A stretch of 64,000 nucleotides of DNA, taken from contig OZ244207.1 in NCBI GenBank assembly GCA_965216875.1, forward strand, positions 5,408,001 to 5,472,000, read 5' to 3'. A program made the position numbers and the translations under genes. This document shows, piece by piece, positions 10,446-19,117 of the stretch. The notes below the pieces were generated by a model. That model ran no database searches. It was not told the DNA's origin and saw nothing but the letters and a program-made list of their open reading frames with translations. Source of the DNA: Rubripirellula sp. Its GTDB lineage: Bacteria; Planctomycetota; Planctomycetia; Pirellulales; Pirellulaceae. Within the stretch, counting starts at the first letter, position 1; each line of letters opens with the position of its first letter.

Positions 10446-10451
10446 GTAGTG

Positions 10452-10692
10452 GTAGGCCGGATCAAGGAGCGACAGCGACGCAGATCCGGCACTCCCGCCA
10501 CGCGTCATCCGCACCGTTCGTCCTCCGCCCTTGGGCGCCTTTGGGCGGAATGAGAGAAGATTCCGGCTAAAGCTCGGTACTACGAACGAGTCTTCCCTCC
10601 ACGCGTCGTAGCTACCTTCGCCAGAAGGTGGTCCGTGTTGGCTCGCCAAATCAGATCGCTAGCGGAAGATTCCGGCTAAAGCTCGGTACTAC
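10452..10692. repeat. Cluster of GTAG-type REP-like palindromes
   Basis: GTAGGCCGGATC...GATCCGGC (10452-10491), GAAGATTCCGGCTAAAGCTCGGTACTAC (10556, 10665), GTAGCTACCTTCGCCAGAAGGTGG (10608). All recur elsewhere in the window. Confidence 0.85.
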
Positions 10693-11225
10693 ATACGGGG
10701 GGCCGTGAACAAAACACCAAAATTTGTTGGCGGGGTTTTCCCCTCAGCAGACCTACACCCTTTTAGGCACGAAGCCCACCGAATCCGGGGGCCATTTGGT
10801 CTCGAAAGCTACCCGGGTTTGCCGCACGAACGATGGGACAAATGAACGGGCACTTGTTCCATTGGCGGGTGCGATTTTGTGTTGGGGCACCGCTACTTTC
10901 GTCTTCTCCGATAAGTAGCGGTCATCACCAATCGCACCCGCCCGTGTGCTCGGCAATTGCACAGCCCGTGTGCTCGGCTACATTCGTTGCTACAGCAGTC
11001 TGCCACCGCCCCAACAGCTTCTGTGCGTGAACACCATCCACGCTCAGCCCACCTGATCATTCCCCACCCCCAATCTCCCCTGTCAGGGAAGCCCCGACAC
11101 CCGCCAAAGCAGCAGAATACATCGCTGATGCGATTTGATATTTTGTTTGTATTACATACGTCAGTCACTATGGTGTGGTGCTCATGCTGATCCTGTAATG
11201 GGTTCCAAGGTACGGCTGGTAAACC

Positions 11226-11819
11226 GTGACTCCATCAGAGTTTGATTCCGGAGGCCTGTCGCAGACCGATCGTTCACTTGTTGTGCTTGTACGTGGTGGC
11301 GATGAAGACGCTGCGACAGCATTGTACGAACGCTATGCGCGACGGGTGTTTGGGTTGGTTGAAGCTCAACTCGGTGAGCGGCTGCGCGCAAACACGGAAC
11401 CCGAAGACGTCGTTCAATCCGTCTTCAAGAGCATGTTCCGTGGTGTTCAAGCGGGACACTACGACGCTCCCCCAGGCACAACGCTCTGGAATCTGCTGGC
11501 GGTGATCGCCGTCCATAAACTGCGCCGAAAAGCGGGCCACCACTCAGCCAAGCGGCGCGACACCAAACGTAATATTTCGCTTGAAACGCTCGAAGAGGGC
11601 GTCGGGCTCGACCCCTCGTCGCTTGAGTTCCTTCAAGTCACCGTCCGAGAAACGCTCGAATTGCTGCGACCGATCGACCGCGAGATCCTATCGCTAAGGA
11701 TTCAAAGGTACACCGTTGACGAGATCAGCGCTGAACTGGGCCGCAGCCGACGGACGGTCGAACGAAGCCTGCAGCGCAGTCGCGAAAGACTCGCCGACCT
11801 TTTGCTCGACGAAAAGTAG
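11226..11819 (+). CDS. ECF RNA polymerase sigma factor
   Basis: GDEDAATALYERY, EDVVQSVF (region 2) and YTVDEISAELGRSRRTVER (region 4 HTH). Confidence 0.92.
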   Translation: MTPSEFDSGGLSQTDRSLVVLVRGGDEDAATALYERYARRVFGLVEAQLGERLRANTEPEDVVQSVFKSMFRGVQAGHYDAPPGTTLWNLLAVIAVHKLRRKAGHHSAKRRDTKRNISLETLEEGVGLDPSSLEFLQVTVRETLELLRPIDREILSLRIQRYTVDEISAELGRSRRTVERSLQRSRERLADLLLDEK

Positions 11820-11982
11820 CGACAACAACCAATCACCTTTTTGCCCACACACCCCAATTTCCCTAAAAACCTGGAAATAGTTTGGCGGAAATCAACCGGT
11901 AGGTAACCTCAACTAGGTGTAGCCGCATGCGCGTACGGTGGGGGCATTGCTGGCTGTATGAGTCACAGGGCAGGCCATTGCC

Positions 11983-14900
11983 ATGATCAATAAGAGTAGC
12001 GTCGACCAACTTGATGAAGCCATTGATTGCTTCGAACGTGATTGGTCTCCGAGGTCCCTTGGAGGCATCCGGTCGCTGCTGAACCAATTTGATCTTGGTA
12101 ACGACCATTCAGCGATCACCGAGCTGATTCGGATCGACATCGAGCTACGTTACAACCACGGCCTCTCTTTTCCGTTGGACGACTACTTCCGCGAATTTGA
12201 CGGGCTGCTGACGAGCCCAGAAAGCGTGGCCCAAATTGCGTTTGAGGACTATCGAAGTCGGGTTGCCCACGGACACTCAATGGCCGTTTCTCGTTGGCAA
12301 CAACTGCCCGGTATTGGTGATCAGAGTTGGTATCGCGATTTGGTTGGCAAAACGAGCGCTCGCAAATCCCAGCTCAAGAACCGACCGCCGATCGGGACGG
12401 TGGCCGATGTTGGGTTTGAAGAAGCGCTTGAAAAGATCGGCTTTCGACTTGTCGAAGAACTCGGCAGCGGCGCGTTCAGCAAAGTCTACCTTGCAACGCA
12501 AGATGATCTGGCCGATCGTCACGTGGTGTTGAAAGTCGTGCGGCAAGCGCTCGCCGAACCCCAAAACATGGCGATGTTGCAGCACACCAACATCGTGCCA
12601 ATCTATTCGTTCCATCGCATTCAATCGCGATCGGTGATCTGCATGCCCTATGCCGGTGGGCTGACGTTGTCGGACTACCTTTCGTGCGACGATCAAGCAT
12701 CTTCCCGAGGCGGCCAAGGTTTGGTTAGCACCGTGCTTAACCAAGCGCATGACACGGTGGTCGACAGCGAGCCAACCGATGCCGAAGACGACAACAACCA
12801 AAACGGTTCGACACGAGTCCTACATCCAAGTGATCTCAAGAAGCCGCTCGAGTCGCTGCAAGACCTCGACTGCAGTGAGCTTGCGTTATGGATTTTTGGA
12901 CGGCTCGCTGGCGCACTCGCACACTCACACGCGCGTGGCTTGCTTCACGGCGACCTCAAACCCGCCAACGTTCTGATCCGAAACGACGGCGAACCAGCAC
13001 TACTCGACTTTAACCTCGCCCAGTCACTCGACCGCAAACAGATCGCACATGTTGGCGGCACCTTGCCCTACATGCCGCCTGAATCGTATCGCGCATTGAT
13101 GGGCCAATCGTTGGCTCCTCATTCATCGTCTGACGTGTATGCGTTGGGGGTGATGCTCTATGAATTCGTCACGGGCCGACTCCCTTATTCGGCGCCGCAA
13201 TCAACCAGTGCGAGTGACCTTGAACCGGCGATCAAAGACCGTAGCAATCCGGTGCAATGGCGCAGCGAAGACTCGGGCAGCCCAGGCTTGCGACGCATCG
13301 TTGAGCGTTGCCTCCTCGCCGAACCAGACCAACGATACTCGGCCGAACAGCTTCGCGAGGATTTGCAGCGAGAAAGCGAAAACAAGTCGCTCAGCCATAC
13401 GACCGAACCGACCACCTATCAAGCGACCAAGTGGCTCAAGCGTCATCCAAAAGCCGTCTCTGCCTCAACAGCCGGCGTGCTATTGATCTGCCTAATGATT
13501 CCTCTGGGCCTTGTTGCCATTGGGCTCAAGCAACAGTCGGATCATATGTCGGTCGTCGCTCAAATGGATGCGTTTGCTGACAGATCAGCCGACGTTCTGT
13601 CGACAACCATCGTCAATCCGCTTCGCCACCAAGACGATCTGATCGTCGCCGCGCTCGAACCGCTCGAAGAGTTTGGGATCCTCAACCCCGATCGTGAAAA
13701 CGAATTCCAATCGGCTTTGCTGACCCCCGAGCAGATCGAACAACACCGCGACACCGCCTTTCGACATGTCGCGCAAGTGGCCTATGCGGAAATCGACTGG
13801 CTCTCTTCGCGAAACGAGGCTGCCATCGACAGAGCCTCGCGCAAGCGATTGGACCGTTTGGTCGATGCGGCCGAGCGCATCCAAGGCGACATTCCTTCGC
13901 GAGCACTACTGTTCATTCGTGCTGACCAGGCCCTCCTGTCGGGCAAAACCGACCAATTCAAGAAGCTCTCGAAAAAGGCTGCCAAGGTCTTGTTGTCCGA
14001 TTCCAATGACACCGAACGCTATCTCGAAGCGATTCGTTTGTACAAGGAACGAGAATACGCCGAGGCAAGAAAACAACTTACTGAATTGGCGGACAGCGAC
14101 ATTCCGTCGGCTCTGCGTTGGACCATGCTTGGACGAGCACAGTTTCAATCGGGAAAATACGAAGACGCAAAACTTTCGTTCACTCAGTCCATCGAGCACG
14201 CCCCGACCGCATCGCGGCTTTGGTATCTACGTGCCCGTTGTTTCACGGCCACAAACATGTATCGTCGGGCTGCCGATGACCTTTCCAAGGCAATCGACCT
14301 CGAACCCGACCTCACTACGGCATGGACGCTGCGTGGCCTCTGCTACGAGAACATGAAACGGTTCGATGACGCGGTGGCGGACCAAACCGAAGCTCTCAAG
14401 CACTCGCCAAACAACCCGCACGTCTTGTTACTGCGTAGCCGAGCATTCGGAAAACTGAATCTCAAAGAACGGGCCGATGCAGACTACCGAGCCGCGTTGG
14501 AATCGGAGTCGCTTGTGCCGGCCGACTTGATCACTCGAGCGACCGCGCGCGTCAAACGCGGCGACCCCGAAGGCGCACTCGAAGACCTCGAACTCGCATT
14601 TCAACGCAGCCGGCGCGACGCAGGAATCCTTCAAGATAAGGCGTCCGTCCTTTGCAAACTGGGCCGCTACGAGGAAGCAATTGCGTCGCTCCAACAGGCC
14701 GTCGAGCTTGACCCCAGTCGTGAACAGTCGCTGATCGATGCCGCTGTCCTCTTGGCCCGATTTGGACAGGAGAAGCAAGCGAAGAGCTACCTTCGTAAGG
14801 CCATCCGTCCACCAAACAAACCTCGAACGCTTTATCAAGCCGCGTGTGCCAACGCGCTGCTAGGCGAGAACTACCATAAGCGAGCGCTCCCGTTGCTCGC

Positions 14901-15054
14901 CAAAGCACTTCAGTCCGGATACGGAGCGGAGGAGATCAGCCTTGATGACGATCTTGATTCGCTTCGTGAGTACTCCGACTTCAGATCAATGTTAAAAACC
15001 GTCGAATTGGGCAACCGACTTGTGGAAAAGAAAGCATCACGTAAACAACCCTAG
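11983..15054 (+). CDS. Ser/Thr protein kinase with TM helix and C-terminal TPRs
   Basis: LGSGAFSKVY, VVLK, HGDLKPAN, DFNLA, GGTLPYMPPE, SDVYALG; TM near aa 490-515; multiple TPRs. Confidence 0.93.
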   Translation: MINKSSVDQLDEAIDCFERDWSPRSLGGIRSLLNQFDLGNDHSAITELIRIDIELRYNHGLSFPLDDYFREFDGLLTSPESVAQIAFEDYRSRVAHGHSMAVSRWQQLPGIGDQSWYRDLVGKTSARKSQLKNRPPIGTVADVGFEEALEKIGFRLVEELGSGAFSKVYLATQDDLADRHVVLKVVRQALAEPQNMAMLQHTNIVPIYSFHRIQSRSVICMPYAGGLTLSDYLSCDDQASSRGGQGLVSTVLNQAHDTVVDSEPTDAEDDNNQNGSTRVLHPSDLKKPLESLQDLDCSELALWIFGRLAGALAHSHARGLLHGDLKPANVLIRNDGEPALLDFNLAQSLDRKQIAHVGGTLPYMPPESYRALMGQSLAPHSSSDVYALGVMLYEFVTGRLPYSAPQSTSASDLEPAIKDRSNPVQWRSEDSGSPGLRRIVERCLLAEPDQRYSAEQLREDLQRESENKSLSHTTEPTTYQATKWLKRHPKAVSASTAGVLLICLMIPLGLVAIGLKQQSDHMSVVAQMDAFADRSADVLSTTIVNPLRHQDDLIVAALEPLEEFGILNPDRENEFQSALLTPEQIEQHRDTAFRHVAQVAYAEIDWLSSRNEAAIDRASRKRLDRLVDAAERIQGDIPSRALLFIRADQALLSGKTDQFKKLSKKAAKVLLSDSNDTERYLEAIRLYKEREYAEARKQLTELADSDIPSALRWTMLGRAQFQSGKYEDAKLSFTQSIEHAPTASRLWYLRARCFTATNMYRRAADDLSKAIDLEPDLTTAWTLRGLCYENMKRFDDAVADQTEALKHSPNNPHVLLLRSRAFGKLNLKERADADYRAALESESLVPADLITRATARVKRGDPEGALEDLELAFQRSRRDAGILQDKASVLCKLGRYEEAIASLQQAVELDPSREQSLIDAAVLLARFGQEKQAKSYLRKAIRPPNKPRTLYQAACANALLGENYHKRALPLLAKALQSGYGAEEISLDDDLDSLREYSDFRSMLKTVELGNRLVEKKASRKQP

Positions 15055-15065
15055 CTATTCACCAT

Positions 15066-17120
15066 GTGCCCTGTGATTTCAGAATGAAGACCCCAACGAG
15101 ACACCGTCGCCCCGCATCAAAAAGGATTGAGATCGAACCGCTTGAGTCACGCCAATTGCTTGCCGCATTCGGCACACCGTGGCCCAACCCAAGAGAATTG
15201 ACCATCAGCTTCCCTACGGATGGAGTTGCAATCGGTCAGCACCCGAACGACCTTCACGCAACGCTTGACACCATCTCGGCGAGAAGCGAGTGGCAAGAGC
15301 TTGCACTGCGTGCGTACCAAACGTGGTCCGTGTACGCCGACGTCAACGTTGGCCTAAGGAATGACCACAACGTCGCATTTGGAACGGCGGGAATGTCGGT
15401 CAACGACCCGCGTTTCGGAGAGTTTCGCATTGGAGCTTTCCCACAAGGTGGTGTGCTTGCCAACTCGATTCCGTTTCAAGCATCGGCCGGAACCTACTCC
15501 GGTGATTTGCTTCTGAATTCGAACGAGCCGTTCTTCTATCACGACTGGGCCGGTGGTGTGCCACCGGCTCCCAGTTCCTACAAAGGCTACGAGCGAGATT
15601 TGTTTAGCCTGTTGCTTCACGAGTCGGGCAACACGCTGGGAGTGGATGATAACAAGACGCCACACTCGGTGATGTTTCGGCAATACACCGTCCCCAAGGG
15701 AACGCTTTCGCAGAGCGACATCGACAGCATTCAAGCCATTTATGGTGCGCGCACGGACCCGTTTGAACTTGTCGACAACGGCCAGCTTCAGCTGGCGACG
15801 TTGGTTTCCACTCCAGTTGGATTCCAAACCGCGTCGGATGTGATTTCTGTTTCGGGCAGTTTGAAGGACGCTGCGGATGTTGATTACTACGAAGTGACCC
15901 CCGCAAGCGGGCAAGACGATGTAACTGTCCGACTTCGAGCTGCTGGCATATCGTTGTTGACCTCCAAGGTCGATGTGCTTGATGTCAATGGCAATGTCCT
16001 TGGATCGGCGAGCGCAGCCTCGGCGTTTGACAACGACAACGAAATCAACCTCAGCGGACTGAGCGGCCACTCGGTGATCTACATTCGCGTCGCGAGCGCG
16101 AACCAAGATATCTACGGAATCGGCGATTACAAAATCGAAGTCGACTACCGGGACGCGACCGTCAAGGCATCCGACCCAACGCCCAAGGCGCACGATGGCG
16201 GTGTTGACTCGCTCTTTACCAATTTTGCGATTGCCGACGACGAGCAGGGCATCAACGACACGCTCGCGTCGGCGGGCACCCTCAACCATGCCACTGGCTT
16301 TGCTCCCCAAACCCGCTACGAGATCGTCTCGGCAGTATCATCGCTAACCGATGTCGACTACCTGAAAGTCCCTGGCACGAGTGTTGCCGGTCGTTTGATG
16401 GTGCACCTTTCTGGTGTTGGCTTGGATCAACCCGGGATGGACCTGAAGATTGTTGACACAAACGATCAACCGGTCGGAGCATCGGGCCGCCTACGACCAG
16501 ATGGATCGTGGGTGCTTGTCGTGAATCAGCCCGTCGTCAATGCAGACTACTATCTGCGTATCAGCGTGGATCCAACGTCCGCCGTCAGTGTCGGCAACTA
16601 TGTCGCGTCAGCAGAATTTGTTCCTTCCGACACGCCGCATCACATGACAAGTGGCTCGGTCTCTTCTATCGAAGAAGACTTCATTCGCTGGACGGCCGAC
16701 AAGTCAAAGTTGTTTCGATTCGACCTGTTCGCAAGTGGCGGTGCGAGAAACGAACTGGCACGGATTGTCATCTATGACGCTCACACCAAAGAAATCAAAC
16801 TCGCGTTCGCGGCGCGGTCCGACGCGGCACGAAGCGCCCACGTCTGGCTCGAGCAGGGCGACTACATCATTCGATTCACTGCCATCTCGCGCACCGGCAA
16901 TCCCGTCGACAATATCAACTACCGGCTCGAATGCCACGGCATTTCCGATGACCAGGATCCCGACGACCACGACCCACAAGACGACGACGGGCACAACCCT
17001 TATTACTACTACGAATACCAGTACTACGATTACAACACCGACCCAGGCAGCTCCGACTACTACGGGTATTATTATGGGTACGGAAGTGACCCCGAACCCC
17101 ATCCCACCAATACGCCATAG
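15066..17120 (+). CDS. Extracellular matrixin-like protein with PPC-like domains, degenerate zinc motif and Tyr/Asp-rich tail
   Basis: LEPR-XLL-type IEPLESRQLLA; LLHESGNTLG plus Met-turn SVM and LSQSDIDSIQAIYG; repeated DVDYY beta-domains. Alternative start ATG 15084. Confidence 0.82.
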   Translation: MPCDFRMKTPTRHRRPASKRIEIEPLESRQLLAAFGTPWPNPRELTISFPTDGVAIGQHPNDLHATLDTISARSEWQELALRAYQTWSVYADVNVGLRNDHNVAFGTAGMSVNDPRFGEFRIGAFPQGGVLANSIPFQASAGTYSGDLLLNSNEPFFYHDWAGGVPPAPSSYKGYERDLFSLLLHESGNTLGVDDNKTPHSVMFRQYTVPKGTLSQSDIDSIQAIYGARTDPFELVDNGQLQLATLVSTPVGFQTASDVISVSGSLKDAADVDYYEVTPASGQDDVTVRLRAAGISLLTSKVDVLDVNGNVLGSASAASAFDNDNEINLSGLSGHSVIYIRVASANQDIYGIGDYKIEVDYRDATVKASDPTPKAHDGGVDSLFTNFAIADDEQGINDTLASAGTLNHATGFAPQTRYEIVSAVSSLTDVDYLKVPGTSVAGRLMVHLSGVGLDQPGMDLKIVDTNDQPVGASGRLRPDGSWVLVVNQPVVNADYYLRISVDPTSAVSVGNYVASAEFVPSDTPHHMTSGSVSSIEEDFIRWTADKSKLFRFDLFASGGARNELARIVIYDAHTKEIKLAFAARSDAARSAHVWLEQGDYIIRFTAISRTGNPVDNINYRLECHGISDDQDPDDHDPQDDDGHNPYYYYEYQYYDYNTDPGSSDYYGYYYGYGSDPEPHPTNTP

Positions 17121-17122
17121 GC

Positions 17123-19117
17123 ATGGTTGTGAGCTTGGACAAGCTCGAAGCTCTTTTTGAGCAGGCCACGAGCCCACTACGCAGTTCCGTTCTGCAAGAC
17201 AGAAGTGCTGTCCTACGTGAAGCAAAACGCCGTCATGCGCGAGATCCAAACGATCGTGTCGCCATGCGGTCGGTCGCGGCTGCACTTCTGTGTAACAACC
17301 AGCCGGCCGAGTCGCTTGCTCTCTTGCAACGCGATCCTACGATCGCAGACGATCCCCTATGGCACCGACTCGTTGCCCACGCGCACTTGGCATTGAATGA
17401 CGGGCAGCGGGCTCTCGATCACCTTCAGCTGGCGATCCGCTCGGACCCCTGTCAGAGCGATGACTGGAATCTGATCGGGCATCTCTATGCACAGAGCAAT
17501 CAAACGGACAAAGCGATTGAGCATTTCCAACGCTCATTGGTCATCGACGATGTCAATCACGAGGCATCGATCGCGTTGAGTCAGCTTCTGGTCGATCAGG
17601 ACAGACCAAATGACGCGATCGACACCTTACGCGTCAGTATTCTAAAGGACCGCCGATCCGCAACGCTTAACCGAGCGCTCGGACAGTTGCTTGAACACCA
17701 AGCGTTGAGGCTTCGCAGGCGGCGAGCGTGGCGTTTGCATCGTAAGATCCTCGAAGAAGCGGTGGACTGCTACGAGATCGTTTCGGCGTCCGCCCCTGAT
17801 GCTGAAACGCTGGTCCGCTTGGCCGGTATCCTGCGACTCCTCGATCGGCATGACGAATCAACTGCGGCATTGCGAAAAGCCATCGAAGTCGATCCGCTGT
17901 CAGCAGAAGCGTACGCACAACTGGCCAATGTCCATGTCGAGAAAGGCGAAATGGATGCAGCCGCGGTTCTGTTTGAAAAATCACTACGCGCCAACCCCAA
18001 CCGTTCCGGCACGTACTTTCGCTTCACGCGAGCTAAAAAGTTCAAACCGGGCGATGAGTCAGATCAATACCTGGCACAGATTCGCAAGCTGCTTGCCGAT
18101 CCAACGTTGCGACGCCCCGACTTGGTGCCACTGCATTTCGCAGCCGCGAAAATCTTGGATGACACTCAGCAGTACGCGGATGCCTGGCTTCACTACGACG
18201 CCGGAAATCGACTGAAACCGGGTCACAGCGATAACCGCGAGAATCCTCAACGGAGTCAACTTGTTCAAACGGTCAAACGCACCATCGAGGTGTTTGACGA
18301 CGCGTTCTTCGACGGCAGGGTTCCCTCTCCATCGGCCGATCGACGACCGATCTTCATTATCGGCATGCCGCGGTCGGGCACGACATTGACCGAACAGATC
18401 GTTAGCAGCCACCCGTCCGTTATGGGCGCGGGCGAATTGAAAGAGATCGATCGCATCCGTCAACAGATCGTCAAGGACCACACCCAGTACGCTCAGAATC
18501 AAACTCCGGAAGTGCCACTCCAAGAGCTGTACCCTGCGATCCTCTCGACTGTCGACGGCCGCTACCTCGACGACCTGACTCAGCGTCATCTCGACTACTT
18601 AAGAGAGCTCGGCGGCGACTGCCAGTACGTGACCGACAAGATGCCAACCAACTTCTTGCACCTCGGGTTGATCGCGACACTCTTCCCTGGCGCGACCATC
18701 ATTCATTGCCGTCGAAACCCGATGGATGTACTCGTCTCTTGTTACTGCCAAAACCTGAGCGCGCCCTTTTGTGACCTGGAAGCTTTGATCGAGTACCACG
18801 GACTCTACCGAAGGCTCATGCGACATTGGCAGAGCGTGCTCCCGCTTCCTATCCATACGGTTGATTACGAAGAGCTGGTCACCGACCCCGAATCCAATGT
18901 CCGAGCGCTGATCGAGCATTGTGGCTTGCCTTGGGATGCGCGTTGTTTGGATTTCCAATCCAACAAACGAAGCGTCCAAACACCAAGCAAGTGGCAAGTC
19001 CGACAACCGATGTACTCGACATCCGTTGCTAAATGGAAACGCTTCGAACCGCAACTACGAGAGATTGCCGAGAGGATCGAAGAGGAAATGCGATCCGAGG
19101 CTACGTCCGGCTCCTAG
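17123..19117 (+). CDS. TPR-containing sulfotransferase (Sulfotransfer_3 / TPST-like)
   Basis: N-terminal TPRs; 5'-PSB PIFIIGMPRSGTTLTEQI; DKMP.NF; 3'-PB RNPMDVLVS; YEELV.DP; TPS.WQVRQP. Confidence 0.92.
   Translation: MVVSLDKLEALFEQATSPLRSSVLQDRSAVLREAKRRHARDPNDRVAMRSVAAALLCNNQPAESLALLQRDPTIADDPLWHRLVAHAHLALNDGQRALDHLQLAIRSDPCQSDDWNLIGHLYAQSNQTDKAIEHFQRSLVIDDVNHEASIALSQLLVDQDRPNDAIDTLRVSILKDRRSATLNRALGQLLEHQALRLRRRRAWRLHRKILEEAVDCYEIVSASAPDAETLVRLAGILRLLDRHDESTAALRKAIEVDPLSAEAYAQLANVHVEKGEMDAAAVLFEKSLRANPNRSGTYFRFTRAKKFKPGDESDQYLAQIRKLLADPTLRRPDLVPLHFAAAKILDDTQQYADAWLHYDAGNRLKPGHSDNRENPQRSQLVQTVKRTIEVFDDAFFDGRVPSPSADRRPIFIIGMPRSGTTLTEQIVSSHPSVMGAGELKEIDRIRQQIVKDHTQYAQNQTPEVPLQELYPAILSTVDGRYLDDLTQRHLDYLRELGGDCQYVTDKMPTNFLHLGLIATLFPGATIIHCRRNPMDVLVSCYCQNLSAPFCDLEALIEYHGLYRRLMRHWQSVLPLPIHTVDYEELVTDPESNVRALIEHCGLPWDARCLDFQSNKRSVQTPSKWQVRQPMYSTSVAKWKRFEPQLREIAERIEEEMRSEATSGS

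Follow-up and report, generated by a model that had tools for sequence, protein, structure and literature searches.

Within the window, a 64,000-nucleotide stretch of contig OZ244207.1 from Rubripirellula sp. (Pirellulaceae), positions 11226-19117 carry four open reading frames in one orientation (+), as the original prediction had described. They code for an ECF sigma factor (11226..11819; 197 aa; Pfam Sigma70_ECF), a Hanks-type Ser/Thr kinase (11983..15054; 1023 aa; Pfam Pkinase and TPR), a matrixin-like protein (15066..17120; 684 aa; Peptidase_M10 with a sub-threshold Planc_extracel match) and a sulfotransferase (17123..19117; 664 aa; TPR and Sulfotransfer_3, PF13469, E 2e-46). The gaps first given, 11 bp from the kinase to the GTG start of the matrixin gene and 2 bp from that gene to the sulfotransferase, both match the ORF coordinates. 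Judged by the start sites of close orthologues, the ATG at 15084 is more likely the true start than the GTG, and the gap behind the kinase would then be 29 bp; in some orthologues the spacing between matrixin and enzyme reaches ~200 nt. The cassette is flanked upstream by a weak DUF3352 match and downstream by DHH and FAD synthetase genes, and neither a transporter gene nor RiPP machinery was found at the locus. A promoter scan returned 0 sigma-70 sites, and terminator-like sites numbered 13 vs 10.2 +/- 3.0 in shuffled sequence. In one sequencing run, guessed to be RNA, a contig spans the kinase-matrixin junction and nothing covers the tail or the enzyme. Full-text searches of openly accessible literature yielded no paper on this locus.

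The kinase comprises an N-terminal kinase domain, one predicted transmembrane helix (aa 497-515) and a C-terminal TPR region that is likely periplasmic. Its Gly loop, catalytic Lys and HxDxKxxN motif (as an HGD variant) are all present and DFG reads DFN, as it does in 64/71 relatives; kinase activity is putative. The periplasmic part shows no clade-specific shift in net charge (-8 vs -8); between aa 516 and 750, seven Arg columns are specific to the clade, and 8 Asp/Glu columns offset them. An ECF gene beside a Ser/Thr kinase gene with no anti-sigma gene in the cassette is the arrangement of the kinase-associated ECF groups (ECF43, 59-62, 217, 267 and 283; PMC7826278, PMC8999054), for which the available text of these two papers makes no mention of a matrixin or a sulfotransferase. 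In ECF43 an uncharged Ser/Thr motif replaces DAED, whereas the ECF of this cassette retains an acidic version, EPED, with Asp61 in 59/62 sequences and Glu in the other 3; the conserved Ser65 and Ser/Thr69 near this motif could be phosphorylation targets. Gene order is the one feature from which control of the cassette by the kinase and ECF factor may be inferred. The ECF-kinase-matrixin cassette predates the enzyme, and most of its copies carry neither tail nor enzyme; it is therefore not a dedicated sulfation regulon.

The matrixin-like protein consists of an LExRxLL leader, an M10-like domain, further domains (a PPC domain is weakly matched in one orthologue) and a C-terminal tail. The putative export leader (15141..15164, PF07595) scores 16.9 against a profile cut-off of 25.5; a basic N-terminus followed by the LExRxLLA motif is nevertheless present and conserved. 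This leader is the sole basis for describing the protein as secreted, as the original prediction did, and a hydrophobic signal stretch is absent; export through LExRxLL is itself a proposal (PMC8567305). The product is likely an exported surface protein. It is also likely protease-dead, because the zinc motif at 15618..15650 has degenerated to HESGNTLG with loss of the second and third His of the HExxHxxGxxH signature of active M10 enzymes. Both residues are lost in 32/32 scored clade members and in 4/4 of the proteins paired with a glycosyltransferase (see below), and all three His are kept in 52/109 scored others.

The tail itself, the predicted sulfation target, occupies 16953..17117 and contains 14 Tyr, 13 Asp/Glu and no Lys or Arg in 55 aa. 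The Tyr-rich motif once taken as the end of the protein is present there, but 12 further residues come after it. With 13 Tyr in 25 residues, the tail outranks every other of the 31,222 ORFs found in the genome in six frames, which places it beyond chance. Across the clade, tails are composed of 32% Tyr, 22% Asp, 7% Glu, 0.6% Phe, 0.4% Trp and 0.3% Lys plus Arg; short tails of enzyme-less loci (n=86) contain 4.8% Tyr, 5.1% Phe and 3.0% Trp. This composition points to selection for the phenolic hydroxyl rather than for aromatic bulk. Among 543 clade tail Tyr, Asp or Glu occupies the -1 position in 125 and at least three acidic neighbours surround 221. Metazoan TPSTs prefer a proximal Asp and acidic flanks (PMC9372746 section 4). 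Counting against sulfation, an acidic -1 residue is present at only 23% of tail Tyr. Tails use both Tyr codons (402 TAC, 141 TAT) and occur in many independent genomes, and a slippage artefact was accordingly rejected.

The sulfotransferase exceeds the PF13469 cut-off by a wide margin (159.5 vs 27 bits), has no predicted transmembrane or signal stretch and is the only close copy in its genome, which also carries APS kinase genes. The PAPS-binding motifs and TPRs reported earlier are all there. The 5'-PSB motif GMPRSGTT (18362..18385, containing Arg417), Glu438, Lys506, Arg531/Ser539 of the 3'-PB and Ser622 are invariant in 22/22 aligned clade enzymes. In TPST, an Arg in the 5'-PSB, a Glu base about 20 residues further on, a Lys and a distal Ser play catalytic roles, and R417, E438, K506 and S622 line up with the corresponding residues of TPST1 and tick TPST; a review names Arg/Lys, Glu/His and the 3'-PB Ser (PMC9372746). 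These residues are common to the wider TPR-sulfotransferase family and are thus no proof of a tyrosine acceptor. TPST1, tick TPST and TPST2 head the sequence matches in the PDB (E 2e-8 to 3e-4); the top 4 are all TPSTs (E 2e-8 to 5e-6), and CurM and HS-OSTs come behind (E 0.02 or worse). Two solved structures labelled 'uncharacterized protein' equal TPST2 in score. A single-sequence structure model gave pLDDT <50 in the catalytic domain, and the prediction score of 0.02 for a complex of enzyme and tail counts neither way. The N-terminal TPR region contains an Arg-rich segment (aa ~175-208; 17645..17746) that is conserved in the clade and is a candidate dock for the acidic tail. Median TPR net charge is +12 in 22 clade enzymes vs -7 in 36 other TPR-sulfotransferases and -4 to -15 in the nearest sisters; the window's own enzyme, at -4, has the lowest value within its clade. 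A TPSK motif was rejected as a clade marker, as it is found in sister enzymes too.

The coupling of tail and enzyme was assessed in 177 distinct matrixin C-termini, with Tyr counted per 25 residues and a threshold of 8. The enzyme is the next gene in 35/177, and 34 of these 35 tails reach at least 8 Tyr (range 7-16); without a downstream enzyme or glycosyltransferase, 0/115 scored tails do so. The co-occurrence in orthologues by which the original prediction proposed to be judged is thus borne out in 35/35 loci, all within a single clade. No loss of tail or enzyme was seen among these divergent loci (median core identity 54%), nor any enzyme-less clade locus where the downstream DNA suffices. 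Across 401 genomes of the family, 32 clade-level enzyme matches were detected, 27 adjoining a matrixin match, 4 separated from one by contig ends and 1 running off its contig. The sulfotransferase loci form one clade with support of 100 in trees built with FastTree only; the pairing arose once, and the 35/35 coupling therefore represents one evolutionary event. Association of a modifier gene with a Tyr tail showed 0 discordant cases in 57 full-context loci, and 3/3 independent pairs were concordant (p=0.25), with a Tyr threshold picked after the data were seen and with loci L251 and L264 excluded for want of upstream DNA. These two are counter-examples: their Tyr-rich, non-acidic tails (7 and 9 per 25 residues, respectively) have no modifier gene nearby or elsewhere in their genomes.

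The reading that best accommodates these findings is that the tail probably undergoes multi-site Tyr-O-sulfation by the adjacent enzyme before export. An old planctomycete ECF-kinase-matrixin cassette would have gained a TPST-like TPR-sulfotransferase in one Pirellulaceae clade. A signal perceived at the periplasmic TPR region of the kinase would lead to ECF activation and transcription of the cassette. In the cytoplasm, the basic TPRs would grip the acidic tail in its unfolded state, and the catalytic domain would meanwhile move sulfate from PAPS to the Tyr hydroxyls. The LExRxLL leader would then direct export, and the polyanionic, heparin-like tail would be displayed, where it may bind basic partners or cations. 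The original interpretation is thus partly supported: the tail-enzyme coupling, the tail's preference for Tyr over Phe and Trp and the TPST-aligned residues of the enzyme speak for its core, whereas the pairing is confined to a single clade and the cassette around it is older.

An unlikely alternative is that the enzyme has a different acceptor, which could be a glycan, a small phenolic or other surface proteins reached in trans, and that the coupling is a legacy of one ancestral insertion. The single origin of the pairing speaks for this, and the family is very large (7,948 matches), its members usually lying beside surface genes, e.g. those for flagellin, PEP-CTERM and giant LExRxLL proteins, that lack poly-Tyr tails; poly-Tyr-tailed neighbours are absent from all 53 other TPR-sulfotransferase loci, the closest sister enzymes adjoin giant LExRxLL genes, and two more LExRxLL proteins in the window's genome have internal Tyr/Gly/Asp stretches. 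A mere legacy is harder to reconcile with the retention of both partners in all 35 loci and with the exclusion of Phe, Trp, Lys and Arg from the tail, which falls on the same branch as the basic TPR shift. Somewhat less probable still is a tail whose function does not depend on sulfation. It might be phosphorylated on Tyr by the kinase, act as an adhesive through oxidative cross-linking (dityrosine/DOPA) or, having replaced the aromatic motif that closes sister-lineage tails at the same position, bind metal or provide an anchor. Modifier-less Tyr-rich tails did arise in two lineages, yet both are non-acidic; the kinase, for its part, is found upstream in almost every cassette for which the sequence extends far enough, Tyr tail or not, and its catalytic domain is predicted to be cytoplasmic. 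Such a role would also leave the retention of the enzyme and its basic TPRs unexplained.

In sister lineages, the equivalent tail position seems to be paired with a GT1-like glycosyltransferase. Two Tyr-rich lineages besides the sulfotransferase clade carry such a gene nearby instead of the sulfotransferase. It follows the matrixin gene in 4 loci whose tails end in Tyr-rich sequence; in the other of these lineages, the third when the sulfotransferase clade is counted, it lies 5.3 kb upstream of the cassette, with another LExRxLL gene in between whose product could be its target. It is therefore conceivable, if improbable, that a GT1-like enzyme acting in trans O-glycosylates the tail Tyr and that the sulfotransferase then sulfates the sugar. 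GT-TPR-sulfotransferase fusions in two genomes fit sulfation of a sugar, sister cassettes carry the glycosyltransferase in the same gene slot, and the window's genome has one elsewhere, adjoining an LExRxLL gene. The glycosyltransferase was found, however, in just 13/32 genomes with the clade enzyme (3 of the 13 matches being weak), in none of the three single-contig, 99% complete genomes bearing the operon, and nowhere in the available surroundings of any sulfotransferase locus; an enzyme of a different GT family would escape these counts. A broader and doubtful proposal is that LExRxLL proteins undergo modular Tyr decoration, with interchangeable enzymes that polysulfate the pseudo-protease tail in one lineage and O-glycosylate it in others, such that the polysulfated tail would be a genetically encoded heparin mimic and maybe a ligand of the cassette's membrane kinase, in whose periplasmic part no matching shift in net charge was seen.

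If the tail is indeed sulfated by its neighbour, the pair would align in several respects with known systems. The RaxST/RaxX system of Xanthomonas (raxX-raxSTAB) likewise has a TPST-like cytoplasmic bacterial enzyme encoded beside an exported substrate that it modifies before secretion (PMC9372746 section 4; PMC6637879). The RaxX precursor has 60 residues, is sulfated on one Tyr and leaves through a dedicated type I exporter. The protein predicted to be sulfated here is multidomain, ~670 aa long and carries 9-25 Tyr in its tail; the enzyme bears TPRs, and an ECF/kinase pair but no transporter is present. The RaxX-type RiPP arrangement, a short leader precursor with a peptidase-containing type I exporter, was not found, the predicted substrate being 684 aa in length. 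SslST is another bacterial enzyme that uses PAPS to O-sulfate Tyr in a ribosomal product encoded alongside it, but it sits with a LanM and its target is a single Tyr in a small cyclic RiPP (PMC11143521). Metazoan TPST1 and TPST2 are the best solved-structure matches, with the Arg, Glu, Lys and Ser residues in alignment; the bacterial enzyme differs from them in its lack of a Golgi anchor, its N-terminal TPRs, its remote similarity (E 2e-8 at best) and its activity, which is predicted. The tail recalls the 'acidic array' in which sulfotyrosines are set, and with it the Tyr-rich acidic extensions of matrix proteins of the fibromodulin and osteoadherin type (PMC9372746; PMC7310474). The enzyme's own family is that annotated 'Tetratricopeptide repeat-containing sulfotransferase family protein' (PF13469 plus TPR), from the rest of which the clade enzymes differ by their basic TPR region and fixed poly-Tyr neighbour.

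Section 4 of a 2022 review states that TPST is not encoded by most bacteria and names Xanthomonas alone (PMC9372746); a Tyr sulfotransferase acting on a lanthipeptide followed in 2024 (PMC11143521). Each of these enzymes modifies one Tyr of a small peptide (PMC9372746; PMC11143521). For the very large and apparently uncharacterised TPR-sulfotransferase family, for which no substrate was found in the literature searched, the locus supplies a concrete candidate enzyme-substrate pair, and cassette orthologues in named Stieleria and Rhodopirellula strains make a test of sulfation practical. The enzyme may also be a source of soluble activity for the production of polysulfated peptides. Dense multi-site sulfation of a bacterial surface protein, as predicted here, would be convergent with that of vertebrate matrix proteins and, if true, would give bacteria a counterpart to the acidic tails that carry sulfate on matrix proteins of animals. 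Should the sulfated tail also be read by the kinase, the system would parallel the sulfopeptide/receptor-kinase signalling of plants in a bacterium, with a sigma factor as its endpoint.

The locus comprises four co-oriented ORFs on the forward strand, which Pfam assigns to an ECF sigma factor (11226-11819), a TPR-containing kinase (11983-15054), a matrixin with a weak planctomycete leader (15066-17120, with an ATG at 15084 more likely as its start than the GTG), and a TPR/Sulfotransfer_3 protein (17123-19117). The intergenic gaps are, in order, 163, 11, and 2 bp, and the ORF coordinates and Pfam assignments bear out the co-oriented arrangement and the two short gaps described in the original prediction. 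The poly-Tyr tail was also correctly recognized, but 12 residues follow the stretch quoted as the end of the protein. The matrixin-like identity likewise stands by Pfam, although the zinc motif lacks two of its three His residues, and the designation 'secreted' amounts to a predicted export for which the LExRxLL leader (treated in PMC8567305) is the sole basis. The 55-residue tail (16953-17117) carries 14 Tyr and 13 Asp/Glu residues, and its best 25-residue segment has 13 Tyr, the highest value in this 8.26-Mb genome when all 31,222 six-frame ORFs of 80 aa or longer are compared. A genome search identified no close paralogue of the matrixin or the enzyme. Upstream of the ECF gene, the intergenic region at 10446-10700 is a REP-like repeat element (33-nt direct repeat, copies at 10556 and 10665), and as a query it returned 640 BLAST matches over the whole genome. 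Just after the kinase overlapping the window start, the ORF at 1227-1913 begins, as judged by eye, like another ECF-type sigma factor.

ECF, kinase, and matrixin genes are found together throughout the Planctomycetia, and a matrixin match at E ≤ 1e-40 is present in 120 of 401 family genomes. In deeper members of this cassette the ends are dockerin or Ig-like and the zinc motif is often intact; the cassette predates the arrival of the enzyme. Every locus that covers the matrixin core to its end was pooled, giving 177 distinct C-termini from 228 hits, and the following gene codes for a sulfotransferase in 35, a GT1-like glycosyltransferase (GT) in 4, and neither in 119, with 19 truncated; many of these loci have just 1.5–4.5 kb of downstream DNA, and their upstream DNA is short. 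The maximum number of Tyr per 25 residues is 7–16 at the 35 enzyme loci (≥8 in 34), 7–9 at the 4 GT loci, and 0–7 in 115 enzyme-less tails (≥8 in none), the other 4 of the 119 being shorter than the 25 aa required for scoring. Tail and adjacent enzyme, whose co-occurrence the original prediction had proposed to check, are thus together in 35/35 loci, as one evolutionary event. In a FastTree phylogeny of 111 matrixin cores, 30 enzyme-bearing rows and two contig-truncated rows fall on one branch (support 100), with the 4 GT rows on a separate branch; because the enzyme loci share a single branch, the 35/35 reflects long retention without repeated origin. The enzyme tree recovers the same clade (99) with internal groupings similar to those of the matrixin tree, and the sisters of the clade enzymes adjoin giant LExRxLL genes. 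An enzyme-side survey of the 401 family genomes gave 32 hits of at least 264 bits; by coordinate comparison, 27 adjoin a matrixin hit and 4 are parted from one by contig ends, and the remaining hit runs off its contig in a genome that is 73% complete. The locus is a real feature, and its comparative signal is strong but of single origin. In several assemblies (loci L054, L058, L073, L087) the reading frame of the matrixin or kinase gene is broken, by sequencing error or decay, and the tail and enzyme are kept. Some cassettes come with a small protein whose C-terminus is similar (L116:4738-5991, with a weak LExRxLL-leader match, and L430:9735-11009), encoded 5' of the ECF gene or between kinase and matrixin.

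The top PDB matches of the enzyme's catalytic domain are TPST1, TPST2, and a tick TPST (E 2e-8 to 3e-4); a short stretch also matches two uncharacterised structures (E 3-5e-4), and CurM and the aryl and heparan sulfate enzymes score E 0.02 or worse. Two strong APS kinase matches indicate that PAPS is supplied, and the enzyme has no predicted transmembrane or signal stretch. The feature specific to the clade is charge: over the 360 residues preceding the 5'-PSB, net charge has a median of +12 (-4 to +21) in 22 clade enzymes versus -7 (-31 to +20) in 36 others, after 9 more non-clade enzymes failing the motif pattern were dropped. The window's enzyme has the lowest clade charge (-4), yet keeps an Arg-rich segment (+10 in 35 aa). 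The periplasmic part of the kinase shows no such shift (-8 in both 25 clade and 20 other proteins), so the shift is not a general drift in composition. TPR-sulfotransferases form a large family (7,948 of 8,000 scored candidates), and at 53 other loci the neighbouring genes often encode giant LExRxLL proteins or sorted surface proteins such as flagellin and PEP-CTERM proteins. No neighbour at these 53 loci has a poly-Tyr tail; one sister enzyme lies beside a protein that contains an internal cluster of 9 Tyr per 25. Enzymes beside flagellin, PEP-CTERM proteins, or proteins with sorting-like, hydrophobic/basic C-termini occur at L127, L137, L138, L423, L427, L428, L348, and L349, and natural single-protein fusions of the GT, TPRs, and the sulfotransferase (~1,180 aa) at L345:6854-10375 and L347:6755-10336.

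The GT lineages lend partial independent backing to the link between tail and modifier. In four paralogous cassettes (L088, L092, L093, L096), a GT-B, GT1-like enzyme with invariant His and Asp occupies the slot after the matrixin, whose tail ends in Tyr clusters; in three, the ECF gene has moved downstream to the opposite strand, and at least three of the genomes also have a sulfotransferase-type cassette. In L116, a third Tyr-rich lineage with 13 Tyr in 55 aa, a member of this GT family is encoded 5.3 kb upstream in the same orientation, with an extra LExRxLL gene intervening, so that the link is non-operonic; its genome has no match to the sulfotransferase catalytic domain. When the 29 enzyme-less loci whose upstream DNA spans 8 kb or more are compared, L116 is the sole GT bearer and the most Tyr-rich. 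No conflict between modifier and Tyr-rich tail occurs in the 57 tree rows whose full context is available, at a threshold of at least 7 Tyr per 25 chosen after the data were seen, and independent pairs are 3/3 concordant (p=0.25) with L251 and L264 left out. These two count against the link: their tails are Tyr-rich and non-acidic, yet a modifier was found neither in their loci (18 kb and 14 kb, respectively, the L264 locus stopping 173 nt past the gene) nor by genome searches. In the genome carrying the window, a GT1-like gene lies directly 5' of a gene for a 1120-aa LExRxLL protein (G000:C1:1407319-1412130; L357:5320-10131). Internal stretches rich in Tyr/Gly/Asp, with 11 and 9 Tyr per 25 aa, respectively, occur in two likely paralogues of that protein (C1:5844224-5847859; C1:101085-104645), which are possible in-trans targets for the GT or sulfotransferase. 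In 12 of the 20 loci L390-L409, the GT family lies immediately next to a gene whose protein has at least 1,000 aa; most of these proteins have an LExRxLL-type leader, and some contain Tyr-rich stretches (e.g. L398, 11 per 25). This GT family and its large neighbours are a candidate planctomycete surface-protein O-glycosylation system.

Several readings of the tail's association with the enzyme can be weighed. R417, E438, K506, R531, S539, and S622 are invariant among 22 clade enzymes and near-invariant in a 96-row alignment including non-clade members; these residues mark a working sulfotransferase and do not specify its acceptor. That the enzyme acts on another substrate, with the tail coupled to it by descent, is unlikely but carries some weight. 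Clade tails are composed of 32% Tyr, 22% Asp, 7% Glu, 0.6% Phe, 0.4% Trp, and 0.3% Lys+Arg, versus 4.8% Tyr, 5.1% Phe, 3.0% Trp, and 19% Pro in 86 short enzyme-less tails. That Phe and Trp are excluded hints at a role for the hydroxyl. Tail identity (0.51) only modestly exceeds that of shuffled tails (0.40), so much of the conservation is of composition. We regard a tail functioning without sulfation as improbable. Sulfation of a GT-made Tyr glycan is more doubtful still: GT-TPR-sulfotransferase fusions exist, but the GT was found in just 13 of 32 clade genomes and was not found in three that are single-contig and 99% complete.

Direct sulfation of tail Tyr would likely resemble, by analogy, the actions of RaxST on RaxX and of metazoan TPST on acidic arrays. 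In PMC9372746, Xanthomonas is given as the bacterial TPST example, and acidic tracts with multiple sulfotyrosines are described in fibromodulin; SslST is a further bacterial case (PMC11143521), raxST homologues without raxX have been reported elsewhere (PMC6637879), and bacterial sulfotransferases have been predicted to act on hydroxylated collagen-like proteins (PMC2938197). With its large predicted substrate and no exporter, the locus is not a rax-type RiPP system. A full-text search of non-subscription papers found none on planctomycete tyrosine sulfation. Within the kinase, a membrane-proximal periplasmic region (13471-14232; aa ~497-750) carries 7 Arg and 8 Asp/Glu columns whose conservation is confined to the sulfotransferase clade, and it may form a ligand site specific to that clade. 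Gene order and known kinase-linked ECF groups (PMC7826278, PMC8999054) suggest that the kinase and ECF regulate the cassette; because an acidic DAED-like motif is retained in this ECF, an EcfP-like mechanism would not be required. We consider it fairly probable that the basic TPRs of a cytoplasmic enzyme dock the unfolded acidic tail, that several of its Tyr would be sulfated before export, and that the likely protease-dead matrixin-like protein, once exported, would present a polyanion.
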